From Mytilus edulis (taxonomy: Eukaryota): DNA of 64,000 bases. The position numbers and the translations under genes are program-made. The stretch is from contig NC_092349.1 of NCBI RefSeq assembly GCF_963676685.1, forward strand, positions 63,390,924 through 63,454,923, in the 5' to 3' direction. Below the pieces are notes generated by a model. That model was not told where the DNA came from and did not search any database. It saw nothing but the letters and a program-made list of their open reading frames with translations. Positions within the stretch are counted from its first letter, which is position 1. Each line of letters opens with the position of its first letter. Shown here piece by piece: positions 19,216 through 62,346 of the stretch.

Positions 19216-19355
19216 ATGTCCGCACCAAGGAGATCAGCCGATGAGCCTATCTACAGAATACCACCATATTACTATCTACATGTATTGGACCAAAATCTTA
19301 ACATCACAAGACTAGAGATAGGTCCACAGACCTTCATTAGACAAGACAATGAAAG
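19216..19355 (+). CDS. MVP: MVP paralog A exon 1 (start codon)
   Basis: ATG at 19216. [46 protein letters not shown] + ag|gtaagg donor. Matches the vertebrate MVP N-terminus (..[35 protein letters not shown]). Confidence 0.85.
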
Positions 19356-19741
19356 GTAAGGAATTTTTCTATAGAGTGCTTCCACGTAACAAAAGGACCA
19401 CCTACATATCTTGGACATATGTTTGATCGGAACCTTGATAATACAGAACTAGAAAAAGTTCCATAGACCTTTCTTTTTAATGTAAGGCCATGTGTAATCA
19501 CTACTAGTGTTCATTATATACAATGAACAATTCTTAATATTATTCTGCCATTTTTAATTCACAGAATGAAGAAATTGTTTATAGTTAATGAAAATTATAT
19601 TTGAAGGTTTTTTTTACATGTTTAAATAAACTCATCATAGATACAATAAATTATTATTCTTACATTTCTCTAAGCTATTATTGTAATCCAAAGGGAAAAG
19701 CTACTGTAAAACGTGTATCATATGTGCAATTTTACTTACAG

Positions 19742-19937
19742 AGTTGTATATGGACCAGAGCGTATGATCACTGTCCCCCCAAGGCATTATTGTATTATTG
19801 AAAACCCAGTACTGAAAGACAAAGAATGTAAAGTTGTCTTTGACGAAAGTGGACAGGCCAAACTTGTACATGCTGACCAGGAGATAAGATTGGCACAGGA
19901 TCCTTTCCCACTGTACCCTGGGGAAATACTAAAACAA
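19742..19937 (+). CDS. MVP: MVP paralog A exon 2
   Basis: Acceptor ttacttacag. (R)[65 protein letters not shown], donor caa|gtatga. Frame anchored to track ORF 19713..19943. Confidence 0.9.
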
Positions 19938-20710
19938 GTATGATGTACCATTATGCTACACTTTGTTTTCATGTATTACCGTATGGCACTTATTTTCGCA
20001 GGGTGTAAATTTTTGCTTATTTTCTTGGATAGAACAAAATTGTCCAAATAAATTCCTCCTATATAAAAGTTAACATGCAAATGTATTGATAAAATGGTTG
20101 AATCCACCATAACAATCACCACCAAAATATTTCGTATACCATGTATACCTTATTCAATGAAAATCGCAAAATCTGGCATAATTGCTCCATTGCAAGGGAT
20201 TTTGTAAGCATTTATCTGCTAGTCAGATGATAACATCTGCTTTTGAAATATTCACAGATATAGTTTGAATGAGATCTGAGAAAATTGACTTTTTTGAAAC
20301 TTAAATAGTCTTGGTTTCGTTACATATGCATGAGAAAATCATCCAGGAGGAAGAAAACAAAATTTGTAAAATTGAAATTGAAAAGGAAGTAATCATATGT
20401 TTACAAGGTCTTGTTTCTATCATTGTCTATCCAGTACAGGTAACATTTAAGATTTGTTATTAAATCAACATTGATCAGTAGAGTGACAAGGAAGTAAGAT
20501 GTCTTAGACGTTTTACTTGATATCACACACCTTTAAATGTCGTTCTCCAAATTATAATGACTTGTTTGATAGTTAAACTAGTATCTTCAAGGTTAACAAT
20601 GTATGATTTAAATCTTCTTTTCATTTTTTGATACTCATAATATTAGGCCTAGTTTATATAACGTGAAAAGTGTTAGCAGCAAATTTTATTATCTCCCTTT
20701 TTGTTTATAG

Positions 20711-21061
20711 GTTGTAACTCCCTTGAAAGTGGTAGCAGCCAACTCAGCCCTTCGGCTCAGAGCTATTCTAGACTTTGAAGATGACGATGAGGAAAAGAGA
20801 ACAGCTGGGGATGAGTGGCTATTTGAAGGACCAGGAACATATATCCCAAGGAAAGAGGTTGTTATTGAGGAGACTGTCAGAGCCACAGTCATTAGACCTA
20901 ACCAGGCCATTAGACTGAGGGCCAGGAAAGAGACTATTGACAGACAAGGTGTTGCTAGGGTAACTGGTGAGGAATGGCTGGTGAAGAAGACTGGAGCTTA
21001 CCTCCCAGGAGCTTATGAAGAAGTTGTGGATGTTGTCAACGCCTATGTTCTAACAGATAAG
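20711..21061 (+). CDS. MVP: MVP paralog A exon 3
   Basis: Acceptor ttgtttatag. [50 protein letters not shown]...[32 protein letters not shown], donor aag|gtaaag. Track ORF 20723..21076. Confidence 0.9.
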
Positions 21062-21414
21062 GTAAAGAGGCTGTAGAGGGTGCATAAAATGTCTTTTTGT
21101 GGAAACATGAAAGTAAAAAAATCAAATTTACAGTGAAATTATATAAGCACATTATTGTACCAGCACAAAATTTAGGTAAATTTTAATTTAGAAAAAAATA
21201 GATGGCATTTGATGTTTGTTTAGGCAAGATCCTACGATACGTTAAAAAAGGTTACTATCTATAATACATGTTATTGAGAGGAGAAAACCCTATAGAATAA
21301 AGAGTAAATCACACAAAAAATATACAGTACTCCTAATTTAATTGATCATTCTCAATATGTTTGGAGGAAATATGTATATTAAAGTTATTAAATATTTTCT
21401 TTCACATCTTGCAG

Positions 21415-21540
21415 AAAGCCCTTCATATGAGGTCATTGAGAACTTTTAAAGATGACTTTGGTGTAACAAGAAAGAATGGAGAGGAATGGCTGATCAAAAT
21501 GACAGACACAGAAACACACATACCTAATGTGTATGAAGAG
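21415..21540 (+). CDS. MVP: MVP paralog A exon 4
   Basis: Acceptor cttgcag. KALHMRSLRTFKDDFGVTRKNGEEWLIKMTDTETHIPNVYEE, donor gag|gtatgt. Track ORF 21361..21573. Confidence 0.9.
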
Positions 21541-22013
21541 GTATGTATCTCTATGGTGTATAATAACAGATAATGAGGCTACAGCCATATGTTCTATGTG
21601 TCAGATCAATATTACCCTACTGTATATGTACATACCAGTAAATCTTATGTTTCCCATTACTGAAAACCAGCTGGTAATCTGGAACCATTTATACTTTTGC
21701 ATTACAAAATGATCGGGAAAAGTGTCAATCTTATGCAAAGTTTTATAGAAAATGTAATTATAGATTGTACAAAATTGTCTGAAAAAGACTTATCCTTAAA
21801 AACTATCTCTGAAAAAAATTGGTAACCTTTTTCCTTGTTTTAATCTCTAGAACCTCAGTTGATTGCACAGGGATCATTTTCGATAACCATGATTGACAAA
21901 TGATTTACCTTAATTTTAAATACCGGTAAGGAACATTAAAAGTCATTTATTTATGGAATGATACCAATGTCTAGCTTCTGACTTTAATGTACACAACTTT
22001 ATTTTTTCCTCAG

Positions 22014-22124
22014 GTTGTTGGAGTTGTGAATATTACCACATTAACCAGCAGACAATACTGTATTATCCTTGATCCTTCAGATGAGCATGGCAGACCACAA
22101 CTTGGTAGAAAGAAATTAGTCAAG
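22014..22124 (+). CDS. MVP: MVP paralog A exon 5
   Basis: Acceptor ttttttcctcag. [37 protein letters not shown], donor aag|gtatgg. 111 nt, phase 0. Confidence 0.85.
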
Positions 22125-22325
22125 GTATGGTGAAAATTTGTTTCAAGGGAATTTACCCCTTTATTTATTCTATTATCATGATTATAATACAATATTCAAT
22201 GTCAATTTTTACTTAACTGTGGGAACTGTGAAAATAATGCAAACTTGGTGTGTACTTCAAAATTAGAAAGAAAGAAATATTTGGTACATGTAGCAGTATT
22301 ACTAATTTCAATGTATTTTTGGTAG

Positions 22326-22451
22326 GGTGAGTGTTCCTTCTTTTTGTTACCTGGAGAACGATTTGAGAGAGGAATCCAGAATGTCTATGTACTGGGAGAA
22401 GATGAAGGAGTTATACTCAGAGCTACAGAATCATTCAAAGATACAGATGCT
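22326..22451 (+). CDS. MVP: MVP paralog A exon 6
   Basis: Acceptor tttttggtag. [42 protein letters not shown], donor gct|gtaagt. 126 nt. Confidence 0.85.
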
Positions 22452-25400
22452 GTAAGTTTTTTGCCTATTTGAAAAAAAAAATCTGGAAAGACATAAATTG
22501 ATATTCGTGTCTTGGTCGTATAAGCCTCCTAGGTAGCTGGAATATATTTAACAAAGATTACAGCTGTGTCTGCCCATCTAACAGGGTATAAGTCAGCTTT
22601 GTATGATACAGTTTGTCAGTTACTTGTAGATAGAAGGTTGGTTTTATCAGGTCACTGCATTTCCCTCAATAAAACATAAATTTCCTAAAAAGCATGACTA
22701 TGATGACTACAAAAAACAAAACAAAGAAAAAAATCAAAAAAGAGACTGAATTTCATGTTTATTTCTCATTCAATTGCAGAGAAACACACTTTTGGTGCAC
22801 ATGATGCAGAGAGACAAAAAGTAACATAAATAATTAAGGCCGTTTATTTTCTCGTTTGAATTGTTTTACATTGTTTTTTCTGTGCCTTTTATAGCTGACT
22901 ACACGGTCAATTCATTTTTGCATCATGTGTCTTGATGTTGACTATTTCTATATTTCTTGCATGCTCTCTGAATATTATCATGATTGTTGAATAAAAAGGT
23001 CTTGAATTTGAAACAACTTTGAAATAATTTCAAAAGCACTTATTTATTAATGATGGGAATCTGGTTTGGTTTGTAATTCAAAGAAATAGCATTGAAAGAA
23101 GACAACAAGACAAACTAATGCTAAAATAAAAAAAAATAAAAACAAGCCTTGACTATAATAGTTACGCCTTTTTATACGATCACAAAAATTGAAATTGTTT
23201 TGGTCATATATTGGTATGACGTTGGCATTGTCGTCGTCATTGTCGTCATCGTCCGAAGACATTTGGTTTTTGCACTATAACTGTAGTGTTAGATAGAAAT
23301 CTATGAAATTTAAACACAAGGTTTATGACCATAAATGGAAGGTTGGGATTGATTTTGGAAGTTTTGGTCCAAACAGTTTAGGAATTAGGGGCCAAAAAGG
23401 GCCTACATAAGCATTTTTCTTGGGTTTTCGCACACAATAACTAGTTTAAGTAAACAGAAATCTATGAAAATTTAACATAAGGTCTATGACCACAAAAGGA
23501 AGGTTGGGATTGATTTTGGGAGAGTTTTTGTCCCAACAGTTTAGGAATTAGGGGCAAAAAACAGGTCCCAAGTAGGCATTTTTCTTGGTTTTTGCACAAT
23601 AACTTTAGTATAAGTTAATAGAAATCTATGAAATTTTAACACAAGGGTTATGACCACAAAAGGTAAGGTTGGGATTGATTTTAGGAGTTTTGGTCCCAAC
23701 GGATTAGGGGCCACAAGGGTCCAAAATTAAACTTTGTTTAATTTCATCAAAAATGTATTATTTGGGTTCTCTGATATGCCAAATCTGACCGTGTATTCAG
23801 ATTCTTAATTGTTTGTCCTGTTTTCAAATTGGTCTACATTAAGGTCCAATGGGTTCAAAATTTAATTTAGCTTGATTTTAACAAAAATTGAATTCTTGGG
23901 GTTCTTTGATATGCTGAATCTAAACATGTACTATGGGCCCAGTTTTCAAGTTGGTCCAAATCAGGGTCCAAAATTATTATATTAAGTATTGTGCAATAGC
24001 AAAAAAAATTCAATTGCACAATATTGTGCAATAGCAAGAAATCTTCAATTGCACAGTATTGTGCAATAGCAAGAAATTTTCAATTGCACAGTATTGTGCA
24101 ATAGCAAGAAATCTTCAATTGCACAATTTTGCGCAATAGCAAGAAATTTTCAATTACAGTTTTGCGCAATAACAAGAAATATTCAATTGCACAGTATTGT
24201 CCCGTTTTCAAATTGAAACTTCAAATTAAAATAAAATGTGCATATGTTTTTATAACTAAATGGATAGTTTTCATTATATAACTTATGCACATATACTTTT
24301 TTCTGAAGAAAATTCTTTAATTTGTCCACATTTAGAAGAAGTTTACTTTTTTTTTAATTGCTTGCTTCCAGGAAGCAATTTGCGGACATATTTTCCATAT
24401 GCATAGTGACCTTAGCGTGACCCTCCTCATAAAAATCCAGTGATTGTAATTCGCATGGATTTGTCTTTAAAATAAACAATTATCTGATTGTACATGTTAA
24501 ACACAAGCTCAATACCCATGCTTTTTTGTTGTTTGTTTAATATAAGGTAACAATCGGTTAACTTCGAGCCAGCCATATTTTTTAAATCTTAACAGACAGA
24601 GAGAAAAAATTGATGATTCTACAATATATTTGCGTAAAAAATGATAAAATCGTGCACAGAAGACTTAGTTTATAATATATACATGCATTGGTTCAAGAAT
24701 TGGATAAACATTATTTTTCACTAGTCACTCGTTTCATGACTATAAGGTCCAAATGGTCAAAAATTAAACTTTGTTTGATTTCAACAAAAATTGAATATAT
24801 GGGGTTCTTCAATATGCTAAAACTAACCATGTATTTAGATTTTTAATATTTGCGCCCAGTTATCAAATTGGTCCACATTGAGGTCTGAAGGGTCTAAAAT
24901 TGAACATTATTTGTTTTTATCTAAAATTGAATTCTTGGGGTTTTATGATCTGCTGAATCTAACCATGTATTAAGATTTTGGATATTGGACCATTATAGGT
25001 AAATGTCCAATTTAAAATTTTTAACTTTTTAAGTTTAAGTTCTTAGACCACATTCATTCTGTGTCAGAAACCTATGTTGTGTCAACTATTTAATCACAAT
25101 CTAAATTCAGAGCTGTATGAAGCTTAAATGTTGTGTCCATACTTGCCCCAACTGTTCAGGGTTCAACCTCTGCGGTCGTATAAAGCTGCGCCTGCGAAGC
25201 ATCTGGTTTATAGAAGTGTTTAAATTCAGTACACTATGCAGTGAACATATATTTTTCAAAGTTATGTCAAAAGATTAGATTGTTTTGTTGTATAACATTT
25301 ATTTACTCTGCATGTTAATATTTTGTTGCATACCATAATATTAAAAGTCTGCTTATGTTAATTCTGTCTGTCTCTCTGTGACTGATTTGCCATTTCAGGA

Positions 25401-25635
25401 TCTAAGCGACTCTAAGGTATTTTTAAGCTGTTCAAACACCTAAGTAAAGTGTACATTACACCTTTGGTTGGAAATCCATTATTTTCTGGAAAAACAAATT
25501 GCATTTTTGGCATTTTTAATTTGTTTTTACCCAAAATGCATTACTGGTAGATTCTGAAATGGTAAAATGTCAAATAACATTAAAGTGTAAAGCAGAGAAG
25601 AGAAAAGGTGAATATTACCTTTTTGTTTATTTCAG

Positions 25636-25647
25636 CCTGATGAAAAA
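25636..25647 (+). CDS. MVP: MVP paralog A putative 12-nt micro-exon (PDEK)
   Basis: tttttgtttatttcag|cctgatgaaaaa|gtaagtc has a strong polypyrimidine tract, AG and a GTAAGT donor. It is phase-neutral and fills the acidic linker between ..KDTDA and [10 protein letters not shown] (compare vertebrate ..EEGEDEEK..). Not required for frame, so it could be alternative. Confidence 0.45.
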
Positions 25648-27126
25648 GTAAGTCAGCAAGTGCACTTAATGCTTTCAGTGCTTTGATCTAACTGTGATTC
25701 TTGTCATACACATTAGATATAAGTAATGTGCTAGCTGCTTCAGAATAGGAAGTGCTTTCTTTGATTATCTAGTGTTTTTAATGTGTGTTTGTCCTTTAAT
25801 CCCTGTTTTGCTAATGTGTTTTACTAATGTGTTTTGCTAATGCCTTAAATTGTCCAGTGTTTTTTCTCATCATTAAAGGGAATCATGAAAACAAACCATG
25901 CTTTTTATTTGAAACTAGATCGATTAATTAAAGACAATGAAAAAAGAACAAATTATTTATAGTTCAATAAACAAAGACATTTAACTTTTTCAAAACATAA
26001 TTTAGTTGTTAATTTGTAAATTTCCTGAATGATATGTAATTCAGCTGTTTGCATTGCAAAGTGCTACAATTTGTATAAATGTACTAAATAATAACAAAAG
26101 ATTTCTTATAATGTGTGCTTCAATAACATAAGTATGCTTTATATTAGGTTCATATTTCAACCTCAATTCCATTGGGAGACTCCTATACTGTTTATACAAA
26201 AGTAAGTCACAGTGACTTCGCTTTGTAAATAGATATTTAAAAATTCAATGTTGTTTGAATATATTATTTTAATAATCTTTTGTTCAAGTTTTCAAAAGAA
26301 ATTTTAAAATCAAGGATTTGAATAAGTTATTTTCTACATAATAAATATTAATAAGCTTTATTTTCAAGAACAAATTCTTGATACAAAATAAATCAGTTAT
26401 TTTCATGCTGTCATCTATTATTCATATCTCATTAGCCTTTTATTGGTCCCAATATCTATGTAATACTTGCCACTGGACATTAAGAAGCAATACTCTATCA
26501 TTCGTTTGATACCAACCTTCATGGGTTTTGTGGGTACAGGTGAACTACAAATTCAAATGTTCAACACATTACAAATTTTTTAATGACTTCAAAATATCTG
26601 CTTGAACATAATAGTATTTTCATTTTTTACATTTTCAAGACTTACATGTTTGAGATTTCTATTCATTCAAATTTCAATACACATTTCATCAAACTCCTTT
26701 ACTAATAGATACTTGTTTTCTGTGTACTTAATCTGGCTTTAAAGATGATTTATTTTGAGTTTACAACATATAATAGCCTTAATGTAGCTTCAAAGGGGTT
26801 CTATCTCTGCATGAGCAATAAAATATTTTTCATGAAGTACAAGTTCAGTCCTTTGACAAAGTTTTTCTCAGTGCATTTACCATGCTTATTGACTTAAGTT
26901 TTTGCACTAACAAGTTTTTCATTTCAACTTTATACTTTTATGGCTGCTTTTTAATGTAGAACTGTTGGTAGTTTTATAAATACTATCAGTTTAAGTCTTC
27001 AGAAGTCATTTCATTTCATACTAGCACATAAAAAGATAGTCAAAACAAGATTTACAAAATCAAGATTCTGTTGGGAAAGATTTTTTGTGACAACAAAGTT
27101 ATTTATTATCAAACTTTTTATTTAAG

Positions 27127-27276
27127 GATGTTGAAAGGAAACCAGGAGATAAATGGATGATCAGGGGACCAGCAGAATATGTACCACCTGTAGAGGTCGA
27201 GGTCATCATGAAGAGAACTGCAATCCCATTGGACGAAAATGAGGGAATCTATGTCAGAGATATTAAAACTGGAAAG
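27127..27276 (+). CDS. MVP: MVP paralog A exon 8
   Basis: Acceptor tttatttaag. [50 protein letters not shown], donor aag|gttggt. 150 nt. Confidence 0.85.
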
Positions 27277-27712
27277 GTTGGTGTTACACATATATATATA
27301 TATACTAACATTAAAACTTGAAATCAACAATAACAAATTCATTTTTTTTTTAAATTCAAAAGAAAGATAAAAAATCTTTTTTAAATGGAATATTTAGCAA
27401 AATGAAGTTATTTTTTGAAGTGAGGATTTTTTCATGAATTTTGTTAAACAAAAAACAACCTATTTTGTAACTGAACAATTCCGAGAATTTTGTGTATGTT
27501 ATGAAACACCGGGGATCTCTATTTTGACCAAAAATTATGAATTAAGATTTGATGTATTGTTATGTTTTTTAAAATACACTGGGTACTGTATATCATTATT
27601 GAGAGAACACACAAACCATTTAAATAGTAACATCTCCCATCATCCATCAACGTTTGATATTGTCTTTACACTAGTGAAGTTTTGACTAAGATTAACATTA
27701 TACATATTATAG

Positions 27713-27951
27713 GTCAGAGCTGTAACTGGAGAAACCTATATGTTAAACCAAGATGAGGAATTATGGGCCAAAGAACTTCCTCCTGCAGTTGAGACCCTTC
27801 TTGCCCAAGGAAAAGACCCTATGGCAGACAGGAGTGATAGGTCCAAATCAAGTGATTCATCCAAACCACGCGACAAGACTCGTGTTGTCACATTCAGAGT
27901 TCCACACAATGCTGCAGTACAGATTTATGATTATAAAGAAAAGAAAGCCAG
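27713..27951 (+). CDS. MVP: MVP paralog A exon 9
   Basis: Acceptor tattatag. [79 protein letters not shown] + ag|gtaaat. Track ORF 27740..27955. Confidence 0.9.
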
Positions 27952-28545
27952 GTAAATAGTGTTTCATACTCAGTGTATACATTCCCATATCCAACAGGCC
28001 ATGAGCAGAATCAGGCTAGTCATTTGATTCATAACAATCTATGAATATTGATTGAGTAGAAAGTACACATTGTAAACCAACTTCTTCAGGGCTTTAGTGG
28101 CCTAATGGGCTAAGAGGTTCATATACAATCATCACAATCTTTTAATTTAAGGTTGCGAGTTCAAACTCAGCGGGTTCCAAGTAAGTTAGACATCAATCTT
28201 AATCAACAAGAAATGCCAGTTTTCCTGCTGAATATCAATGGTTCTTTATGGTTACTCCTGCTTTCTCAATTAATTAAATCTGACCACTGTGGTATGGCAA
28301 ATTTTGCTGAAACTGGAATCAAATATCTAAAAAGAAACAAACAAAGTTCTTTATGTAAATCTTTGATAATTGTTGAATGATCCAGACAATTTTGGTAAAA
28401 TTTAGATTTTATTGAAAACTTATAATTCACAAATTTAATCATTACCCTTGAAATCCAACAAAATTAGTATCAAACAAGTTGTAATGATTGCACAGTAGTT
28501 AGTTACATAGAAATAATACCACTTGTAATTTTCTTTCCTTTATAG

Positions 28546-28888
28546 AGTTGTGTTTGGTCCAGAATTAGTTATGTTGGGTCCAGATGAACAATTCACACAG
28601 CTTAGTCTCTCTGGAGGTAAACCAAAGAAACAAAACGTTATCAAATCATTGTGTTTACTTCTTGGACCTGATTTCTGTACTGACATTATCACCGTAGAAA
28701 CAGCCGATCACGCTAGGTTGTCACTTCAGCTGTCATACAACTGGCACTTTGATATTAAAAATAAAGAAGATAAGACAGAGGCATCTAAGATTTTCAGTGT
28801 ACCAGATTTTGTTGGGGATGCCTGCAAGGCCATTGCCTCCCGGATTAGAGGAGCTGTGGCTCAAGTTCAGTTTGATGATTTCCACAAG
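28546..28888 (+). CDS. MVP: MVP paralog A exon 10
   Basis: Acceptor cctttatag. (R)[28 protein letters not shown]...[31 protein letters not shown], donor aag|gtatga. Track ORF 28550..28894. Confidence 0.9.
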
Positions 28889-29506
28889 GTATGATTAATA
28901 ATCTGTACAAGTGTAGATCTTAATAGACACATGCATTATCACTGAAATTTTTTTATAGGTCAAACTCATAAAATTATTGTTCTATTCATAAATATTACGC
29001 ATATAAAAATTGTTTTAGCTGTTGAGAAAATATTCATAAATATTGCGCAAATAAAAATAAATGTGTGGTATGATTGGCAATTTGAGTACTCTCCACCAGA
29101 GACAAAAGTGGCATAGAATTTAACCTTGAATTATAATTTTATGAACAAATAAACATGAGCTAAAAATTGTCTTTCAAAATTATACTAAAGAATTATTTCC
29201 AGGTTTTTCTCAAAATCCAGGGGTGGTGCTAAAAACTCCAGAGTGTAAGAGAACCACTCTGGAATATCCTTTGATGTTCCGTGAGGCATATTGATAGATA
29301 CGAAACCTTATGTTTATACATGTATCACTGCATAATATAATTTTTTCTCATCAGGGCAAGGAGTGAATCAATCCTATTAAATGAAGAAAAAATATATTAT
29401 GCCATATAGAATAAAAAATACAATCACAAATAATCAGTACAAACTGAAAATTATCTACTGTGGACAGAAAAAAAATCAAAATTAAGAAATCTGCATTATG
29501 TTACAG

Positions 29507-29718
29507 AATTCTGCTAGGATCATCAGATCTTCTGTGTTTGGTTTTGATGACAAAGACAAAGTGCGTGAAGTTTTCAAATTCCCACAAAACAACTTGGTAT
29601 TCACCAGTATTGATATCCAGTCTGTAGAACCTGTAGATCAGAGAACTAGAGATGCCTTACAGAAGTCTGTACAACTGGCCATTGAAATCACAACAAACTC
29701 ACAGGAAGCTGCTGCAAG
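29507..29718 (+). CDS. MVP: MVP paralog A exon 11
   Basis: Acceptor tatgttacag. [70 protein letters not shown] + ag|gtagat. Track ORF 29498..29722. Confidence 0.9.
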
Positions 29719-30129
29719 GTAGATAACTCTACAATAACTTCTACTGGTATCATAAAAACACACAAATTATTGTACAGGAGAAAACTGCAAAGTAGTTATG
29801 AAAACACAGTTCAATTTTAGATGACAAGGCATTTATAAAAATGAAGAAATGGTTTCATTTGCCAATGAAACAATTCTCCACCAGAGACCAAATGACATGA
29901 AGATTAACTACTATGGGTCACCATTCTGACTTCAGTACCTTATCATTATAAATGGCAATGGTCCTGCTCCCTAATGTTGGGAACCTGTACATGATTTGTT
30001 TGTTCATCTGTGCTGGTGTTTATCATTTAGATAGTTCATGCCAGAAATAAGAATTATATTGGAAGTAATCTGCAAAACACAAATTGATGAATATAAGTGA
30101 AGAGTTTTATCAATATATATTTTTTTCAG

Positions 30130-30373
30130 GCATGAAGCAGAAAGATTAGAACAGGAAGCTAAAGGAAGATTAGAGAGACAAAAGATATCAGATGAAGCAG
30201 AAGCTGAGAAATCCAGGAAGCAATTGTTAGAACTACAGGCAAACAGTGCTGCAGTAGAAAGTACTGGTCAGGCTAAAGCAGAGGCACAGTCCCGAGCTGA
30301 AGCTGCTAGGATTGAGGGTGAGGCAGCTGTAGATCAAGCCAAACTGAAATCACAGGCCATGAAGATTGAGGCA
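30130..30373 (+). CDS. MVP: MVP paralog A exon 12 (coiled-coil cap helix)
   Basis: Acceptor ttttttcag. (R)[81 protein letters not shown], donor gca|gtaagt. Track ORF 30224..30409. Confidence 0.9.
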
Positions 30374-31274
30374 GTAAGTATAAAAATGTGTTGCTCTGTC
30401 AGAATATAACATTCACTAATTATACAACTGCAAAAATTGAAAATTTTTGGTCGTATATTGGTACGACATTGTTGTCAACGTCGTCAACGTCCGAAGACAT
30501 TTAGTTTTCGCACTATAACTTTAGTATGAGTAGATAGAAATCTATGAAATTTAAAAACAAGGTTTATGACCATAAAAGGAAGGTTGAGATTGATTTTGGA
30601 AATTTTGGTCCCAACAGTTTAGGAATAAGGTGCCAAAAAGGGCCCAAATAAGCATTTTTCTTTGTTTTCGCACAATAACTTTAGTATAAGTGAACAGAAA
30701 TCTATGACATTTTAACATAAGATTTATGACCACAAAAGGAAGGTTGAGATTGATTTTGAAAATTATATACCAAAGATAATGCATACTGTGGACTAATTAT
30801 TATTCCCTGGATACTTATTTTCGTGTATTTCCTCAGGAGAGAAAAATAACAAATTTAAATGTTCAACAAAACCTCAGATTTCCTATTGGCTTGTCTAGAG
30901 ATTTTTTGAATCCATGGATATTGCTATCTATAAAAAGAAAGTATATCTCAGCATATAAATAATATAATATAATGAATATAAAGAGATTTTGAAAGATTGT
31001 CAATTACTATAATTTCAAATTGAGACGAATGGATAAGGATGTTACCACCACTGGGAACCATATGCCCTTCAACAATTAACAAAACACATAGCTTGACCTT
31101 TTAGAAAGTTTTGTCAAATATGTCAAAGAGACAACAGCCATACTGAAGAGTAGATAACAGCCAAAGGCCACCCAAACTTGTCTAACAAAATGAATTCTTG
31201 ATTATTCTCATCCAAACCTCTAGGTTATGCAAATGTTTGAGATCATATCTTCAAATTCTTTGTTGACTTTGTAG

Positions 31275-31613
31275 GAGTCCGAATTAGAAAGACTTACACA
31301 AGCCAGAGAGGCAGAACTTAAATATGTGAGAGAGCAGAACGACATGGAACTTTCAAAATCAAAAGAAATGTCAACTATCGAAACAACAAAATTCAAGAAC
31401 ATGGTGGATGCTATTGGAGCAAATACCTTGGCAACCATGGCTTCAGCTGGACCAGACCAACAGGTCCGTATGTTGCAGTCCCTTGGCCTGAAATCAACCC
31501 TTATCACAGACGGTAGTACACCAATAAATCTGTTTAATACAGCCAACGGATTGGTTGGAGGTATGATGCCAGCGAAGAGGAGCAGACGATCGGATGAGGA
31601 AGATGATGATTAA
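31275..31613 (+). CDS. MVP: MVP paralog A exon 13 incl. stop
   Basis: Acceptor ctttgtag. [112 protein letters not shown]. The motif [24 protein letters not shown] is the conserved MVP C-terminus. Track ORF 31326..31613. Confidence 0.9.
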
Positions 31614-42025: not shown

Positions 42026-42112
42026 GTCGTGTGGTCTAGTGGAACGGCTACAATGCAGGCGATTTGGTGTCACGACATCTTAGTAGCATGGGTTCGAATC
42101 CCGGCGAGGGAA
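42026..42112 (+). ncRNA. tRNA-Glu-like pol III element (box A TGGTCTAGTGG, box B GGTTCGAATCC). Degenerate tRNA pseudogene, SINE head or other small pol III RNA.
   Basis: The D-arm (GTGGTCTAGTGG) and the 3' end (GGTTCGAATCCCGG-CGAGGGAA) closely resemble tRNA-Glu. The 5' acceptor half does not pair with the 3' half, and the box A to box B spacing is about 48 nt, too long for a canonical tRNA. The first T4 run downstream is at about 42153. Confidence 0.4.
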
Positions 42113-47650: not shown

Positions 47651-50600
47651 GTTTTTTACACAAAACAAATGTCAAGCCATTCCATCATCATCATCATCTC
47701 AATTCAAATTTTAAATGGACTTTGCAACCATAAACACTCATTTAAATACATCAGAAAATTATAAAAATAGAAAATGACATGATAGTCATGTCTGGCAAAT
47801 TTCCAACATACATTATCTAAAAACATTTTAGAAAAGATAAGGGAAAAAAGCTTCATCAGCAACATTTTATATTGGCAAATTTCCAATGAAGTTATTTACA
47901 TAAAGTTATTGGCAAATAAAAATAGAAAATGACATCATAGTCATATCTGGCAAATTTCCAACATATATTATCTAAAAATATTTTAGATAAGATAAGGAAA
48001 AAAAAACTTCATTAGCAACATTTTATATTGGCAAATTTCCAATGAAGTTATTTACATAAAGTTATAGGCAAATAAAAATAGAAAATGACATCATAGTCAT
48101 GTCTGGCAAATGTCCAACATACATTATCTAAAAACATTTTAGATAAGATAAGGAAAAAAAGCTTCATCAGCAACATTTTATATTGGCAAATTTCCAATGA
48201 AGTTATTTACATAAAGTTATTGGCAAATTTCCAACATATATTATCAACTACTACTCTATACAAAGAAAGATAACTCCAATTGAAAATTAATTGCTATTAC
48301 ACAATATTGTGCAATTAGATATTTCTTGCTATTGTGCAATACTGTGCAATTGAAAATTTCTTGCTATTGCACAATACTTGATATGGAATCCTGATTTGGA
48401 CCAACTTGAAAACTGGACCCATAATCAAAAATCAAAGTACATGTTTAGATAAAGCATATCAAATAAGCCAAAGAATTTAATTTTTGTTAAAATCAAACTT
48501 AGTTTAATTTTGGACCCCCATTTGGACCAACTTGAAAACTAGGCCAATAATTAACCAGATGCTCCGCAGGGCGTAGCTTTATACGACCGCAGAGGTTGAA
48601 CCCTGAACGGTTGGGGCAAGTATGGACACAACATTCAAGCTGGATTCAGCTCTAAATTTGGATTGTGATTAAATAGTTGACACAGCATAGGTTTCTGACA
48701 CAGAATGAATGTGTTCTAATGAACTTAAAATTTTTGTTTTCTCTTAGAGCAATTCACTATGCTGTTGAATATTAATCCTCTCAAAAAAATGTTTGAAGAA
48801 ATTTTCTTTTTTATTTATGAAATTTCAAATGAGAAAAATTGAACCCAATTTTTTTAATCACATCCCCCTTTCCTTTATTCCAAAACTAATCTCAATTAAA
48901 ATTTCTAATGGAGTTTGCAACAATAACTACTCATTTAAATACATCATAAAATATTAAGATGTAAAAAAACTGCTTGTTATCACTGAATGGTAAAGATTAT
49001 TTTAATTTATCAGTTGGTAGTAAAAAGTGAATATACATTGTATATTGTATATAACAAAGATTTAAGTTGATTCTGGACAAAGAAAGATAACTCCAATTAA
49101 AAAAAATCTTGCTATTGCACAATATTTTGCAATTAGATATTTCTTGCTTACTATTCTGGACAAAGAAAGATAACTCTAATTAAAAAAAAAATTTGCTATT
49201 TCACAATATTGTGCAATTAAATATTTCTTGCCATTGCGCAATACTGTGCAATTGAAAAGACTTGCTATTGCACAATACTTAATATAATAATTTTAGATCC
49301 TGATTTGGACCAACTTGAAAAGTGGGCCCATAATAAAAAATCTAAGAACATTTTTGGATTCAGCATATCAAAGAACCCCAAGATTTCAATTTTTGTTAAA
49401 ATCAGACTAAGTTTAATTTTGGACCCTTTGGACTTGATGGTAGACCAATTTGAAAACAGCACCAAAAATGAAGAATCTACATACACAGTAAGATTTGGTA
49501 TATCAAAGAACCCCATTTATTCAATTTTTGATGAAATCAAACAAAGTTTAATTTTGGACCCCGATTTGGACCAACTTGAAAACTGGGCCAATAATCAAGA
49601 ATCTAAGTACATTTTTAGATTCAGCATATCAAAGAACCTAACTGATTCATTTTTTGTCAAAATCAAACTAAGTTTAATTTTGGACCCTTTGGACCTTAAT
49701 GTAGACCAATTTGAAAACGGGACCAAAAGTTAAGAATCTACATACACAGTCATGACAGTTAGATTCGGCATATCAAAGAACCCCAATTATTCAATTTTGA
49801 TGAAATCAAACAAAGTTTAATTTTGGACCCTTTGGGCCCCTTATTCTGTTGGGACCAAAACTCCCAAAATCAATACAAACCTTCCTTTTATGGTCATAAA
49901 CCTTGTGTTTAAATTTCATAGATTTCTATTTACTTAAACTAAAGTTATTGTGCGAAAACCATGAATAATGCTTATTTGGGCCCTTTTTTGGCCCCTAATT
50001 CCTAAACTGTTGAAACCAAAACTCCCAAAATCAATCCCAACCGTTCTTTTGTGGTCATAAACCTTGTGTCAAAATTTCATAGATTTCTATTAACTTAAAC
50101 TAAAGTTATAGTGCGAAAACAAAGAAAATGCTTATTTGGGCCCTTTTTGGCCCCTAATTCCTAAAATGTTGGGACCAAAACTCCCAAAATCAATACCAAC
50201 CTTCCTTTTGTGGTCATAAACCTTGTGTTAAAATTTCATAGATTTCCATTCACTTTTACTAAAGTTAGAGTGCGAAAAGTTTTTCAAATTTTGCGGTCGT
50301 ATAAAAATCTAAGTACATTTTTAAATTCAGCATATCAAAGAACCCCAAGGATTCAATTTTTGTTAAAATCAAACTAAGTTTAATTTTGGACCCTTTGGAC
50401 CTTAATGTAGACCAATTTGAAAACGGGACCAAAAATTAAGAATCTACATACATAGTTAGATTCGGCATATCAAAGAACCCCAATTATTCAATTTTTGATG
50501 AAATCACACAAAGTTCAATTTTGGACCCTTTGGGCCCCTTATTCCTAAACTGTTGGAACCAAAACTCCCAAAATCAAACCCAACCTTCCTTTTGTGGTCA

Positions 50601-51445
50601 TAAACCTTGTGTTAAAATTTCATAGATTTCCATTCACTTTTACTAAAGTTAGAGTGCGAAAAGTTTTTCAAATTTTGCGGTCGTATAAAAATCTAAGTAC
50701 ATTTTTAAATTCAGCATATCAAAGAACCCCAAGGATTCAATTTTTGTTAAAATCAAACTAAGTTTAATTTTGGACCCTTTGGACCTTAATGTAGACCAAT
50801 TTGAAAACGGGACCAAAAATTAAGAATCTACATACATAGTTAGATTCGGCATATCAAAGAACCCCAATTATTCAATTTTTGATGAAATCACACAAAGTTC
50901 AATTTTGGACCCTTTGGGCCCCTTATTCCTAAACTGTTGGAACCAAAACTCCCAAAATCAAACCCAACCTTCCTTTTATGGTCATAAACCTTGTGTTTAA
51001 ATTTCATAGATTTCTATTTACTTATACTAAAGTTATGGTGCCAAAAATAATGCTTATTTGGGCCCCTTTTTGGCCCCTAATTCATAAACTGTTGTGACCT
51101 CAACTCCAAAAATCAATCCCAAGATTTTGGGAGTTTTGGTCCCAACATTTTAGGAATTTGGGGCCATATTCATTGATTTCTATTCACTTTTACTAAAGTT
51201 AGAGTGCGAAAACTAAAAGTATTCGGACGACGACGACGCAGGACGACGACGACGACGCCAACGTGATAGCAGTATACGACCAAAAAATTAAAATTTTTGC
51301 GGTCGTATAAAAAGCATAGGCCATTTTCTGTGTTAACTTAAAATAATTTTGTTGAACAGTTTTGATATAGATACAGACATCCAATCATAAAACAAAAAGA
51401 AAACACGTGATATAAATACTTAATAGTGTTCACAGTTCAACTTAC

Positions 51446-51571
51446 AGCATCTTTATCAATGAATGATTCTGTTGCTCGTAGAATAACACCTTCATCTTCT
51501 CCCAGTACATAGACATTCTGGATTCCTCTCTCAAATCGTTCTCCGGGTAACAAAAAGAAGGAACACTCACC
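51446..51571 (-). CDS. MVP: MVP paralog B exon 6
   Basis: Acceptor tttttatag. [42 protein letters not shown], donor gct|gtaagt. 126 nt. Confidence 0.85.
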
Positions 51572-52173
51572 CTATAAAAATACAATTATATAAAATGAGA
51601 ATAATTATATACTCGGGGAATAAGAAAGATGCCTTCAATGAAAACGTTAAAGTTAAGTTAAAGATCAGCTTTCAGCTGTTGAGTTGTATTGACATTGAGA
51701 GAAAAAAGAATGTTTTCTGTAAAATACACAATGTAAAGAATTCTGATCCGAACGCCGACTTATTAATTGACATTTCACCGTTTCAGAATCTAATGCACCC
51801 TGAGTAATATTTTCCAAAGTGTACGCCAGAAACGTCGTGATTGGTTAAAAATGTCATTAACAATGGAAATTCAACCAATGACGTGACGCTATTTTCATTT
51901 TGGGTACGAACAATGAAATTACCCATGATTCTTTAGATTTTGAAACGGCCAATTACTAAGTACTCTTTTAGAGATGGTGCAATAGGAAATACACCGTACA
52001 TATGACATAATAACAGGGCGTTTTCGTCACTGTTCAAAATACTTTATTCACATAAGCTTGTTGCATGCCAATTTATTAATATAAACTTGGTATATACTAT
52101 GCAACAGCATACATTGATGAAACTTAGTTATACAGAATATTATCTATGCTAATTCATCTAACATTGTATTTAC

Positions 52174-52284
52174 CTTAACTAATTTCTTTCTACCCAGCTG
52201 AAGTCTGCCATGTTCATCGGAAGGGTCAAGAATGATACAATATTGTCTTGAGGTAAGTGTGGTGATGTTGATGACTCCAACAAC
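52174..52284 (-). CDS. MVP: MVP paralog B exon 5
   Basis: Acceptor gatttcag. [37 protein letters not shown], donor aag|gtaaat. 111 nt. Confidence 0.85.
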
Positions 52285-53614
52285 CTGAAATCAAACCGTA
52301 AGTATATTACAAACCAGATGCTCCGCAGGCCGCAGCTTTATACGACCGCAGAGTTTGAACCCTGAACATTTGGGCAAGTATGGACACAACATTCAAACTT
52401 GATACAGCTCTGAATTTGGATTGTGATTAAAAAGTTAACACAACACAGGTTTCTGACACATAATGAATGTGGTTTAAGAACTTAAACTTAAAAACTTTAA
52501 ATTTTAAATTGTACATTACCTATTATGGTCCAATATCCAAATTCTAAATACATGGTTAGATTAAGCATATCAAAGAACCCCAAGAATTCAATTTTTGATG
52601 AAATCAAATAAAGTTCAATTTTGGACCCTTTACACCTCAATGTGGACCAATTTGATAACCGGACCAAAACATCAAAAATCTAAACATGGTTAGATTAAGC
52701 ATATATCAAAGAACCCTAATATAGACAATTTTTGTTGAAATCAAACAAAGTTTAATTTTGGACCCCAATTTGGACCAACCTGAAAACTGGGCCTATAATC
52801 AAAAATCTAAATACATGTTTAGATTCAGCATATCAAAGAACCCCAAGGATTCAAAATCTAAATACATGTTTAGATTCAGCATATCAAAGAACCCCAAGGA
52901 TTCATTTTTTGTTGATATCAAACAAAGTTTAATTTTGGACCCCGATTTGGTCCAACTTGAAAAATTGGGCCAATAGTAAAAAATATACGTAAATGTTTAG
53001 ATTCAGCACATCAAAGAACCCCAAGGATTCAATTTTTGTTAAAATCAAACTTAGTTTAATTTTGGACCCTTTGGACCTTAATGTAGACCAATTTGAAAAC
53101 GGGACCAAAAATTAATAATCTACATACACAGTTAGATTCGGCATATCAAAGAACCCCAATTATTAAATTTTTGAAGAAATCAAACAGCTTGATACCAATA
53201 TACGACCAAAACATTTTCAATTTTAGCGGTCGTATAAAAATTGGAAACTGTTTTTCAACCACCGCAACATTAACATTTCTTTTCAGTAGGCGTTAAGTTT
53301 CAAAAACAATGGCAATTACTTAAGTATTGGTCCATTGCTGCATTGTTTGAACAGAACTTAAGCGAATCTGAGCTGTACTCAAATTGAATATTATCATAAC
53401 TTGTAAAATGAAACTCGGAAGAGTGCATGAGTATGAACTGCACTGAGTCAGAATCATATTTTGTTGATTAAAAGTGAAATAGAAAGGAAGTAAGGAAAGG
53501 ATTTGAAGAAATCAAAGTGAAGATGTGTTCCCCAGACACGTTTTTCTTTTATTCATAAAAGGAAAACAATAAGTGTTTATTCCATATTTCATTCCCTGTT
53601 ACATCAGTACATAC

Positions 53615-53740
53615 CTCTTCATACACATTAGGTATGTGTGTTTCTGTGTCTGTCATTTTGATCAACCATTCCTCTCCATTCTTTCTTGTTACACCAAAGT
53701 CGTCTTTAAATGTTCTCAATGATATCATATGGAGGGCTTT
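53615..53740 (-). CDS. MVP: MVP paralog B exon 4
   Basis: Acceptor tatcttgcag. KALHMISLRTFKDDFGVTRKNGEEWLIKMTDTETHIPNVYEE, donor gag|gtatgt. Track ORF 53549..53746. Confidence 0.9.
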
Positions 53741-54130
53741 CTGCAAGATAACAAATTAGATTGATTGTTGGTTGCTTAACGTCCAGTGGCAAATGAACAA
53801 ATAAGATGATAATGTCTTGTCTAATTACGTTGTACATTACTAGTATTTGAAAGGTGAATAATATGACCAGATAACTCTAAGAAATATTTTTAAAATTGTT
53901 TGTTCCTATTATGCTACGTTTTCTTTCTCTATTTTATATAACGTTTTTATGGTGTACTAGTTTATCATCTATTTATTCCTCCGCAAATTTAAATAAACAT
54001 GCAAAATATTTTTTAAATACGAAAATTCAAACGATCGCATCAACAAAAGAAACACGAAACATGCACCAATAGATCAACGATCAATTTATCTTCTTTTTAT
54101 CGTCATTCCACTGATTGGAACTATATTTAC

Positions 54131-54481
54131 CTTATCTGTTAGAACATAGGCGTTGACAACATCTACAACTTCTTCATAGGCTCCTGGGAGATAAGCTCCG
54201 GTCTTCTTCACCAGCCATTCCTCACCGGTTACCCTAGCAACACCTTGTCTATCAATAGTCTCCTTCCTAGCCCTCAATCTAATGGCCTGGTTAGGTCTAA
54301 TGACTGTGGCTCTGACAGTCTCCTCAATAACAACCTCTTTCCTTGGGATATATGTTCCTGGTCCTTCAAATAGCCACTCATCCCCAGCTGTTCTCTTTTC
54401 TTCATCATCGTCTTCAAAGTCTAGAATAGCTCTGAGCCGAAGAGCGGAGTTGGCTGCTACCACCTTCAGGGAGGTTACAAC
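54131..54481 (-). CDS. MVP: MVP paralog B exon 3
   Basis: Acceptor ttcgtag. [50 protein letters not shown]...LTDK, donor aag|gtaaat. Track ORF 54086..54463. 351 nt as in A. Confidence 0.9.
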
Positions 54482-55392
54482 CTACGAACAAATGAGAAAT
54501 TCAAATCGGCTGCTACCTAATATCAAGGGTTTCCACCTTTAATCCACAATGGTGAAAATCAAATAAAATGCTACCATTTTAAATGGTGGTATACTTATCA
54601 TCAATTAAATTAGCTCCTAATACTTTTTACTACCAATAAACAACAAAGAAGATGCCGAAACCAGCTGCAACTACAGTCATGGCAGGGCTACAACAAATAA
54701 GTGAGATAACTCAAACTCAGGTGCTACTACAGTTTAGGGAGGGTTACAACCAATTAACAACACTTGGAAGGTCAAATCAAATCAGTTGCGTATAGAACAG
54801 CTTCAACCTTCAAGCAACGAGGGAGGAAATCAAATATGTAGCTACCACTGTCAGGGGACGGTTGAAACCAATAAACAACAATTAAATGAAAAAAAAAATC
54901 AACTGCTTTTAAGTAAGCTACAACCTCTAAACAACAAGGGAGGGAATCAAATTATCTGCTACCACTGACAGAAGGGATGGTTAAGACCAGTAACCAACAC
55001 TTAAAAGGAGAAAAAGCAAATCGGTCACTGCCACTTATGGGTTACAACGAATAAGTCATCCGTGGATGTTATATCATTGAAAGTCAATAAGTGATCAATA
55101 TAACATTTTTTCCTTAACTTCATTATGTATTATTGAAAAAATTAGATTATTTCATGCAATCGATAAGTCGTAAATCTGTAGGTAATAACGCATACAATCC
55201 CTGATTACTTATACATTACTGGATTTACTGGCTAGATGCTCAAAATAATTGTTTACTGGGAAATCGTGCCTAGAAGCTGAAATCAAAACAACTCATATAT
55301 TTTTGACAAGTAATAATGAATTAAATATTGTAACTACTTTGTTCTGTTCATTGTTATATCAAAACTTGAACCTATAGCCACGAATATCATAC

Positions 55393-55588
55393 CTGTTTCA
55401 GTATTTCCCCAGGGTACAGTGGGAAAGGATCCTGTGCCAATCTAATCTCCTGGTCAGCATGTACAAGTTTGGCCTGTCCACTTTCGTCAAAGACAACTTT
55501 ACATTCTTTGTCCTTTAGTACAGGGTTTTCTACGATACAATAATGCCTTGGGGGCACTGTGATCATACGCTCTGGTCCATATACCACT
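55393..55588 (-). CDS. MVP: MVP paralog B exon 2
   Basis: Acceptor tttacag. (K)[65 protein letters not shown], donor caa|gtatga. Track ORF 55387..55608. Same 196-nt length as A exon 2. Confidence 0.9.
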
Positions 55589-55981
55589 CTGTAAATATCA
55601 ATGCGCAATATTTGTATCCAGCTTATTACGGTATTGACTTTTAAGAATATATCCTGTCAGATTAATATCTGGTTGAACATGGTCTGGCCTATCTGACAAA
55701 TGAAATGCAAGAAAATCTTGTCATTCCAAAACTTGTTACTAACTAGTATATTTAGTTGTCAGTTCTATGATATTCTAAAAATAAATAGTTTCATATAACA
55801 TTGGGTAATTTTCACTTCAAGTGTACTCTGCCTTTTGGTGTAAACAAAAATCCATAATACTTTTTTCTTTTCTTTTTAAGGTTGTTCTTCTGATGGAATA
55901 GTGTGGGGATTATATGCACCAGAAAATTTATCTAGGCAGACATTCTACTCACGGGAATAAAAAGGCTATAGTTATACTTAC

Positions 55982-56112
55982 TTTTCATTGTCTTGTCTGA
56001 CAAATGTCTGTGGACCAATCTCAAGTCTTGTTACATTGAGGTTCTGGTCTAGAACATGGAGGTAAAAATAAGGAGGGATTCTGTATAGTGATTCGTCTCC
56101 CCGTCTTGACAT
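55982..56112 (-). CDS. MVP: MVP paralog B exon 1 (start codon)
   Basis: Reverse strand ATG at 56112-56110. [43 protein letters not shown] + aa|gtaagt donor. Confidence 0.8.
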
Positions 56113-62290: not shown

Positions 62291-62346
62291 AAATTCCAAT
62301 GGTTATCTTGGGGGAGGGGGGGCTCTTTACTATTCATGGCGTTCAC

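Follow-up and report, generated by a model that had tools for sequence, protein, structure and literature searches.

A convergent pair of major vault protein paralogues in Mytilus edulis, probably an old inverted duplication with exons 2-4 evolving in concert

Two complete major vault protein (MVP) genes lie tail-to-tail in the window, which is the whole 64-kb stretch of Mytilus edulis DNA analysed here, and their spliced models bear out the original prediction in position, strand and completeness (Table 1). No third MVP copy or fragment was found in the 64-kb window. The coding sequence is 2577 nt in both A and B with no internal stops in the spliced models, and the introns are GT-AG throughout (11 of 11 in A; 11 of 11 in B). 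As expected for the pair, exon number is the same (12 vs 12), exon length is equal in 9 of 12 exons, and intron phases are identical because the three unequal exons differ by multiples of 3. The introns are of very different lengths in A and B. The proteins share 786 of 853 residues (92%) with one gap, so the high identity claimed for them stood, at a measured value slightly under the 93% or so first given. In exon 3, 116 of 117 aa are identical, exon 11 has a dN of 0.011, and exons 11-12 of B have 91-96% protein identity to A. The A protein is exactly XP_071180012.1 (M. edulis RefSeq, MVP-like isoform X2) and the B protein is exactly XP_071180003.1 (M. edulis RefSeq).

Table 1. Features of the MVP locus, in window positions (minus-strand features are given from high to low).
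Feature	Position	Strand	Remarks
MVP copy A	19216-31613	+	12 coding exons, 858 aa; read as the conservative paralogue
Copy A exons 1-12	19216-19355, 19742-19937, 20711-21061, 21415-21540, 22014-22124, 22326-22451, 27127-27276, 27713-27951, 28546-28888, 29507-29718, 30130-30373, 31275-31613	+	
Copy A exons 2-4	19742-21540	+	aa 47-271, repeat domains R1-R5; apparently homogenised with B
Alternative 12-nt microexon of A	25636-25647	+	CCTGATGAAAAA = PDEK; copy A intron 6
MVP copy B	56112-44089	-	12 coding exons, 858 aa; read as the derived, faster-evolving paralogue
Copy B exons 1-12	56112-55982, 55588-55393, 54481-54131, 53740-53615, 52284-52174, 51571-51446, 47005-46856, 46601-46360, 46123-45781, 45525-45314, 45051-44808, 44433-44089	-	
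Copy B exons 2-4	55588-53615	-	partner segment of the putative conversion tract(s)
Likely 3' UTR of A	31614-32639	+	77% to M. californianus and 84% to M. trossulus sequence directly after the A stop
Likely 3' UTR of B	44088-43284	-	73-75% to the sequence that follows the B stop in M. californianus and M. trossulus
Satellite-bearing repeat block	33534-36289		Tandem Repeats Finder; units of ~160 bp, 126 bp and 35 bp
B-box / coiled-coil / NHL-like beta-propeller ORF	38603-36939	-	single exon, 554 codons, one in-frame stop (38006-38004)
tRNA-derived, SINE-like element	42020-42110	+	A box TGGTCTAGTGG, exact B box GGTTCGAATCC

Both proteins match Vault, Vault_2, Vault_3, Vault_4 and MVP_shoulder in Pfam, and both are far over the cut-offs of the vault repeat families (PF01505, PF17794, PF17795 and PF17796). 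For example, the Vault family scores 237.7 bits in A and 236.1 bits in B against a cut-off of 27, and the shoulder domain PF11978 follows repeat R9 with 180.2 bits in A (residues 520-638) and 178.3 bits in B (518-636). When aligned with reference MVPs as the original prediction had advised, residues 8-841 of A run without large gaps along residues 3-850 of the solved rat/human MVP chain, through the C-terminal cap-helix/cap-ring region. By their domains and collinearity, A and B are classed as MVP family members, and their self-assembly into 78-subunit vault particles is predicted.

The 3' ends of the two genes face each other across a spacer (31614-44088) of 12,475 bp, matching the 12.5 kb given before. 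Satellites had been noticed in it, and Tandem Repeats Finder detects such arrays; the same families recur in A introns 6 and 11 and B introns 4-6, and in many copies at the M. californianus and M. trossulus loci. The spacer ORF had been described as a TRIM-NHL-like pseudogene. Its B-box (zf-B_box PF00643, 27.1 bits vs a cut-off of 24.1) and its in-frame stop were confirmed, but Pfam finds no RING domain, the N-terminus consisting of B-box-type zinc fingers, and the NHL match (17.5 bits) is under the cut-off of 20, as weak SGL and Mala_s_1-like beta-propeller matches are under theirs. This ORF is not present at the M. californianus or M. trossulus loci, and it is likely a pseudogene or null allele, a passenger unrelated to MVP. 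The element described as tRNA-like and pol III-type does contain tRNA-type A and B boxes, but it is not called as a tRNA by ARAGORN and has no Rfam match at gathering scores (no tRNA or Vault match at E<=1 in the spacer). It appears SINE-like, since 2-3 copies with 89-93% identity exist in the M. trossulus spacer; there are none at the M. californianus loci.

Heterozygosity is high in Mytilus genomes, which readily yield haplotig duplications, and exons 2-4 are 93-96% identical between A and B, so that the pair might be suspected to be allelic haplotypes of a single MVP gene joined head-to-head by the assembly. However, DNA alignment of A with B gives matches only in exons and shared interspersed repeats, while the introns, with their unequal lengths, are unalignable and the upstream (promoter-side) flanks have no similarity. 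Paralogue dS is about 0.65 over the whole gene and over 1 in several exons. Moreover, the convergent arrangement recurs in two independent chromosome assemblies, from M. californianus (GCA_021869535.1; A at 40055885-40071599 on the plus strand, B at 40090184-40098396 on the minus strand) and M. trossulus (GCA_036588685.2; A at 33611151-33626301, plus, and B at 33636840-33651015, minus). The orthologues of A and those of B form one cluster each, spanning five Mytilus species; 52 A/B differences are fixed across these species, and trees of exons 7, 9 and 10 resolve an A clade and a B clade, each in 500 of 500 bootstraps. These comparisons argue firmly that A and B are genuine paralogues in a real tail-to-tail arrangement, as originally proposed, and a haplotig mis-join, with practically no chance of being correct, is regarded as already refuted by the missing intron and flank identity and the recurrence in the two further species.

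Divergence between the paralogues is distributed very unevenly along the gene. Paralogue dS is 0.18-0.32 in exons 2-4 against about 1 or more in exons 1, 5, 8 and 9 (0.96-1.74 in exons 8-9), though each per-exon value comes from 37-117 codons and is noisy, and several are saturated. Orthologue dS is even over the exons (0.25-0.5), with 0.30-0.43 in exons 2-4. Within exons 2-4, 12 sites have the species pattern and 5 the paralogue pattern, compared with 9 and 162 elsewhere (Fisher p = 5e-10), and the exon 2-4 tree places all A copies in one clade in only 6 of 500 bootstraps, while McalA and McalB are grouped in 319 of 500 (64%, a moderate signal). Low divergence of a segment, substitutions shared within species and a topology that depends on the segment, three marks of gene conversion, are thus all found here. 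We infer that gene conversion has homogenised exons 2-4, whereas exons 1, 5 and 7-10 remain paralogue-specific.

DNA similarity ends 5-37 bp from the edges of exons 2-4, and introns 2 and 3, which lie within this span, are not homogenised and have no similarity between A and B. Homogenisation of three exons with dissimilar introns between them therefore points to several very short tracts, not one long arm-to-arm conversion. Short, exon-limited, non-allelic conversion between the inverted copies would hold exons 2-4 near-identical. As a separate observation, PARP4 docks on R3-R5 in the human vault (PMC12280208), and the region corresponding to this dock, by comparison with the human vault only, is included in the converted segment.

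The age of the duplication was approached through outgroup sequences and a small alternative exon. Contig L009, from a species more distant than the Mytilus sampled, carries the B-specific motifs (a 10-letter stretch (…489), K498, N509, S524 and I569) without F518 and S533, both of which are common to all Mytilus B copies; its dN is 0.033 to B vs 0.063 to A, and a split of B plus L009 from A plus P0147 has a nucleotide bootstrap of 73%. The microexon in intron 6 of A has a canonical AG acceptor and a GTAAGT donor and encodes the PDEK insert seen in RefSeq isoform X1 (862 aa), while no counterpart was detected in B. A homologous microexon (ADHK; L010 5058-5069) exists in the outgroup A-type gene (P0147/L010) and also in transcripts of that species. 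Because a B-type gene is present in the more distant species, the duplication appears to be older than the genus Mytilus.

A younger event, just before the Mytilus radiation, would instead explain the exon contrasts by relaxed or positive selection on B and not by conversion in exons 2-4. Whole-protein NJ trees do recover A and B as sister groups to the exclusion of P0147, and the stem branch of B is long, with most of the derived substitutions falling on this copy. However, the contrast sits at synonymous sites (dS of 0.2-0.3 vs >1) while orthologue dS is even, and in exons 2-4 the substitutions shared within species outnumber those shared within paralogues, with a tree that does not recover the paralogues. 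With the B-specific motifs in a more divergent species and the A-specific microexon common to P0147 also against it, we consider a young duplication unlikely.

Both copies are under strong purifying selection. For the orthologues of M. edulis and M. californianus, dN/dS is 0.004/0.34 (0.012) for A and 0.009/0.36 (about 0.025) for B, and B orthologues have evolved about twice as fast as those of A. At the 52 fixed differences, A holds the outgroup state at 36 and B at 10 (chi-square 14.7), which marks A as the conservative, ancestral-type gene and B as the derived, faster-evolving copy. The amino-acid changes of B cluster in the N-terminal tip, the R8 loop, the shoulder domain and the C-terminal tail. 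B gained most of the fixed amino-acid changes that separate the copies and has since been under strong purifying selection. Its higher rate could also be taken as a sign that one copy, most likely B, is non-expressed or decaying, leaving effectively one functional MVP. In the protein collection, no spliced B transcript was recovered, none of the retrieved database fragments of B spanning a splice junction. However, the 858-codon ORF and all 11 splice-site pairs of B are intact in M. edulis, M. californianus and M. trossulus, and for M. galloprovincialis and M. coruscus the annotation includes B-cluster proteins close to full length (857-907 aa). An orthologue dN/dS of about 0.025 and a full set of Pfam domains with scores equal to those of A likewise make decay of B very improbable. 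The selection signatures and existing RefSeq models indicate that both copies are functional and probably expressed.

Both proteins would assemble into vault shells, in which the surfaces that differ between A and B are the peripheral loops and the shoulder. If co-expressed, they probably could co-assemble, B then contributing a specialised surface; this is a guess from the Dictyostelium and Trypanosoma precedent. Alternatively, strict sub-functionalisation would keep A and B in separate homomeric vaults by tissue, stage or stress, without any mixing. Their regulation can differ, since the promoter-side flanks are dissimilar, and polyribosome templating would give one-mRNA particles, a model that favours homomeric over mixed shells. 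Polyribosome-templated vault assembly is mentioned in PMC11219742, where the three salmon-louse paralogues are also described as differing in tissue expression. However, mixed-paralogue shells are reported in T. brucei despite far more divergent paralogues and inferred in Dictyostelium (PMC12547018, PMC3762200), and the cap-helix and barrel segments of A and B are near-identical, therefore presenting no obvious obstacle to mixing. Strict separation is a serious candidate that we place a little short of an even chance, and mixed A/B shells as opposed to separate homomeric particles would, by analogy, stand at about even odds. In M. edulis gill, a 2-DE study resolved four spots of MVP without separating the A and B paralogues.

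In summary, the whole locus is best explained as an old inverted MVP duplication in the mussel lineage, with both copies kept functional as a conserved convergent pair and exons 2-4 evolving in concert, a reading that we hold with considerable confidence. Both genes are already annotated (RefSeq, several Mytilus species), as each paralogue has orthologues in five Mytilus species, and no paper describing Mytilus MVP paralogy was found in the literature. What is new here is the apparent pre-genus age, the probable homogenisation of exons 2-4, the faster B, the A microexon and the strong purifying selection on both copies.

Inverted duplicate genes in general can undergo gene conversion (concerted evolution). 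The mussel pair resembles such duplicates in region-specific homogenisation, species-shared substitutions and segment-dependent topology, but differs in that homogenisation is limited to three exons with dissimilar introns between them. Compared with vertebrate MVP (rat/human; 4V60, 7PKR), mussel A is collinear from end to end, the domain order is the same (repeats, shoulder, cap-helix/cap-ring), and identity per exon to the human guide sequence is about 65-75%. However, the insertion of about 10 aa after the shoulder of mammalian MVP is missing in the mussel, whose C-terminal tail is short, acidic and unlike that of vertebrates, and vertebrates have one MVP gene while the mussel has two, in convergent orientation. 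The original prediction called the duplicate unusual for this last reason, a yardstick that does not apply because the sequence comes from a bivalve, and previous work has described MVP paralogues in Dictyostelium, kinetoplastids, Paramecium and, within Metazoa, in the salmon louse (PMC12547018, PMC3762200, PMC11219742).

Like the mussel pair, LsMVP1-3 of the salmon louse are a lineage-specific metazoan duplication, and two of the three are highly similar copies on one chromosome. They come from another phylum and an independent event, the genes have three exons, and one product is enriched in extracellular cement; concerted evolution or an inverted layout is not described in the part of the source available (PMC11219742). 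Dictyostelium (MvpA/MvpB) and T. brucei (MVP1-3) also have more than one full-length paralogue per genome, as the mussel does with its two conserved full-length genes and their orthologues in five Mytilus species. Paralogues are reported in one shell in these organisms (PMC12547018, PMC3762200), and those of the mussel may likewise co-assemble. The mussel copies are far closer to each other (92% identity vs 52-58% similarity among T. brucei MVPs) and, unlike those of Dictyostelium and T. brucei, are linked tail-to-tail and probably subject to gene conversion.

Two complete major vault protein (MVP) genes were modelled in the window, copy A at 19216-31613 on the plus strand and copy B at 56112-44089 on the minus strand, and the start and stop coordinates of the original prediction were reproduced exactly. 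MVP-like exons appeared in six-frame ORFs on the plus strand at 19.2-31.6 kb. Exons were searched by tblastn with a human MVP guide sequence (used for seeding only), junctions were tuned for GT/AG, frame and score, and the models were validated afterwards by RefSeq identity and PDB alignments. Each copy contains 12 coding exons, all splice sites are canonical, and the 2577-nt CDS specifies a protein of 858 aa. As predicted, exon number and phases are the same and most exon lengths are equal (9 of 12); in the remaining three the length differences of 9, 3 and 6 nt leave every phase intact. The two proteins are indeed highly similar, at 92% identity (786 of 853) rather than the ~93% first estimated. 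Vault, Vault_2, Vault_3, Vault_4 and MVP_shoulder domains are present in both, and alignment to reference MVPs, which had been proposed as a check, places residues 8-841 of A collinearly with solved rat and human chains. No further MVP fragments were found in the spacer or flanks across the whole window.

Exact-sequence look-up identifies both proteins as M. edulis RefSeq entries: XP_071180012.1 (“major vault protein-like isoform X2”) for A and XP_071180003.1 (“major vault protein-like”) for B. They fall in separate 90%-identity clusters, each with proteins of M. trossulus, M. galloprovincialis, M. californianus and M. coruscus. Among the best 120 full-length matches, two distinct clusters are found in Mytilus only and other named molluscs appear once each, a count that would not separate paralogues above 90% identity. 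Given the RefSeq entries, the pair was annotated before, and single-copy vertebrate MVP, by which it had been judged unusual, is the wrong yardstick. Two database proteins named “MVP [Mytilus edulis]” (P0148 and P0149; 94-96% identity to A) look like a third paralogue, a reading that was rejected. Both are earlier, faulty annotations of copy A in which exon 1 was read in the wrong frame at the N-terminus and 27 aa of exon 9 are missing.

A convergent pair of this kind could also be produced by a haplotig or mis-join. Alignment of A against B at the DNA level is limited to exons (77-96% identity) and shared interspersed repeats, while the introns are otherwise unalignable and unequal in length. 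The upstream flanks, 1-19215 and 56113-64000, share no similarity, which also rejects a duplication reaching into the promoters. The same tail-to-tail layout is found in three independent assemblies, of M. edulis, M. californianus and M. trossulus. An artefact is ruled out by the unalignable introns, the paralogue dS and the convergent layout in the other species; the inversion is real and the copies are true paralogues.

Features of the MVP loci, and site counts by exon or protein region (window coordinates unless another sequence is named)
Feature	Location	Strand	Remarks
M. californianus A (GCA_021869535.1)	40055885-40071599	+	spacer to B 18.6 kb
M. californianus B (GCA_021869535.1)	40090184-40098396	-
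M. trossulus A (GCA_036588685.2)	33611151-33626301	+	spacer to B 10.5 kb
M. trossulus B (GCA_036588685.2)	33636840-33651015	-
Alternative 12-nt microexon, copy A intron 6	25636-25647	+	encodes PDEK; matches RefSeq isoform X1, 862 aa
Homologous 12-nt microexon, A-type gene of P0147	L010 5058-5069		encodes ADHK; also in transcripts
Conserved sequence after A stop codon	31614-32639		probably 3' UTR
Conserved sequence after B stop codon	43284-44088		probably 3' UTR
Satellite arrays	33534-36289		units ~160 bp, 126 bp, 35 bp
Satellite-bearing interspersed repeats	1076-1323, 23263-24200, 30420-30758, 33534-36289, 40083-40530, 47761-53032
B-box/coiled-coil/NHL-like ORF	38603-36939	-	single exon, 554 codons; in-frame stop 38006-38004
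tRNA-derived element	~42020-42110	+	A box and exact B box
Coiled-coil ORF upstream of A	5112-5918	-	268 aa
MIR408-like Rfam match	39112-39258	-
Direct repeat	10970-11097		68 bp, 98%, 1.9 copies
Fixed A/B differences	residues 1-66		10
Fixed A/B differences	residues 113-271		1
Fixed A/B differences	residues 272-378		5
Fixed A/B differences	R8 region 383-442		11
Fixed A/B differences	residues 489-518		4
Fixed A/B differences	shoulder 524-618		12
Fixed A/B differences	cap-helix		5
Fixed A/B differences	C-terminal tail		4
M. edulis / M. californianus quartet	exons 2-4		12 species-shared, 5 paralogue-shared sites
M. edulis / M. californianus quartet	all other exons		9 species-shared, 162 paralogue-shared sites

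The loci of M. californianus and M. trossulus supplied orthologous CDS. In the comparison of M. edulis with M. californianus, dS is 0.34 and dN 0.004 for A, and 0.36 and 0.009 for B. Strong purifying selection acts on both copies and counts against a dead one; no transcript evidence for B was found in the database fragments, which are single genomic exons. Across five species, 52 amino-acid differences are fixed between the A and B clades, concentrated in the N-terminal tip, R8 loop, shoulder and C-terminal tail. A carries the outgroup-majority state at 36 of these and B at 10, so B is the derived, faster copy.

The divergence between the paralogues is mosaic. Paralogue dS is lowest in exons 2-4 (0.21-0.32) and exon 6 (0.27), intermediate in exons 7 and 10-12 (0.5-0.8), and above 1 or saturated in exons 1, 5, 8 and 9. 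Local synonymous constraint does not explain this pattern, since orthologue dS is even across exons (0.25-0.5). The site patterns of exons 2-4 differ from those of the other exons (Fisher's exact p = 5e-10). In nucleotide NJ trees of exons 2-4, an all-A clade is recovered in 6 of 500 bootstraps and the two M. californianus copies group together in 319 of 500, while exons 7, 9 and 10 give the A clade and the B clade in 500 of 500. Site patterns and bootstraps support gene conversion between A and B in exons 2-4. Such conversions must be short and exon-limited, because A/B similarity ends within 5-37 bp of the exon boundaries and is absent from introns 2 and 3. The locus is a clean, small case of concerted evolution restricted to exons in a pair of inverted duplicates. 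Repeat domains R1-R5 (residues 47-271) are the part encoded by exons 2-4. The MINT domain of PARP4 docks on R3-R5 of the human vault (PMC12280208), and by analogy the converted segment would overlap the equivalent region.

In whole-protein trees, A and B are sisters and P0147, an A-type MVP from an outgroup relative (transcripts L002-L005 and genomic contig L010), lies outside, a topology due to the converted exons. Exons 1, 5 and 7-10 instead join P0147 to A and leave B outside. Moreover, A and the gene of P0147 share a microexon whose 4-aa insert is lacking in B and other molluscs. A genomic contig from a distant species (L009; Logan SRR26215655) covers exons 8-10 and carries the B-specific signatures, namely a ten-residue signature at 489, K498, N509, S524 and I569. 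It is without F518 and S533, which are common to all B genes of Mytilus (5 of 5), and differs at many further sites; its dN is 0.033 to B versus 0.063 to A, and the split of B and L009 from A and P0147 has 73% bootstrap. Judged from these sequences, the grouping of P0147, the shared microexon and the B signatures of L009 indicate that the duplication most likely predates the genus Mytilus. At the same exon 6/7 junction as the microexon, isoform X1 of M. californianus A (P0124, 876 aa) has an 18-aa insert, VHISTSIPLGDSYTVYTK, which hints that this species has a further alternative exon or retains a segment there.

The spacer between the convergent genes is 12,475 bp long, and its originally predicted contents (a TRIM-NHL-like pseudogene, a tRNA-like element and satellites) were each located and are essentially right. 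The ~160/126/35-bp satellite families recur in the introns of both copies, in the spacer and upstream, and the loci of M. californianus and M. trossulus are also rich in them. The B-box/NHL-like ORF contains no RING domain. It is absent from the loci of both other species and may therefore be a lineage-specific insertion, a presence/absence variant or a null allele. For the tRNA-derived element, a genuine tRNA or vault RNA was considered and rejected: neither ARAGORN nor Rfam gave a model match, and the M. trossulus spacer holds 2-3 copies at 89-93% identity (L008 28029-29038). No copy was found in the M. californianus loci. The element is probably a SINE-like repeat, and what lies in the spacer seems to be made up of passengers, not of components of a system.

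Several other sequences were noticed. The coiled-coil ORF upstream of A has no confident Pfam match; its counterpart upstream of M. trossulus A (L007 2-676), where a 272-aa gene product is called, shows 94.7% identity over 225 aa. The Rfam hit to the plant MIR408 precursor is weak (28.6 bits, gathering score 64, E = 0.0012) and almost certainly reflects a hairpin formed by chance within repeat sequence. The direct repeat has a G run at its start and an A run at its end.

No description of two Mytilus MVP genes was found in the literature searched, where MVP appears as a biomarker and on 2-DE gels. For example, a 2-DE map of M. edulis gill contains four MVP spots (pI 5.48-5.61), ascribed to phosphorylation (PMC5302490). 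The predicted pI of A is 5.50 without and 5.46 with the microexon, and that of B is 5.63. Paralogues and isoforms may therefore contribute to the spot train. In mussel ecotoxicology, qPCR primers, antibodies and 2-DE spot trains for this biomarker may mix two genes.

Vault function is still unclear, and nearly all structural and cell-biological work concerns single-MVP vertebrates. The mussel, with its two conserved, close MVP genes, is common and accessible to experiment and offers a natural test of whether animal shells can be heteromeric, and the A/B pair one of which MVP surfaces tolerate divergence. By analogy with other multi-MVP systems, heteromeric mussel vaults and tissue- or condition-specific homomeric particles appear about equally probable. 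A more specific proposal, which we consider rather doubtful, is that A and B form mixed shells in which selection, acting through exon-limited conversion, would keep R1-R5, the half with the barrel and the PARP4-docking region, interchangeable; divergence of the R8 loop, shoulder and tails would give vaults that contain B a surface of their own. If true, Mytilus would be the first animal system with both a heteromeric vault and a genomic mechanism preserving subunit compatibility.

The original prediction stands in that the copies are true paralogues, but the pair is not anomalous for eukaryotes. Dictyostelium has alpha and beta MVP forms, and knockout of either gives distorted vaults; Paramecium and kinetoplastids have MVP paralogues too (PMC3762200). 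T. brucei has three divergent paralogues that occur together in one shell (PMC12547018), and the salmon louse also has three paralogues (PMC11219742). Since both mussel genes were annotated before and MVP paralogy was known elsewhere, current understanding is not overturned; added here are a probably old duplication, asymmetric evolution of the copies, an A-specific microexon and exon-restricted concerted evolution of R1-R5.
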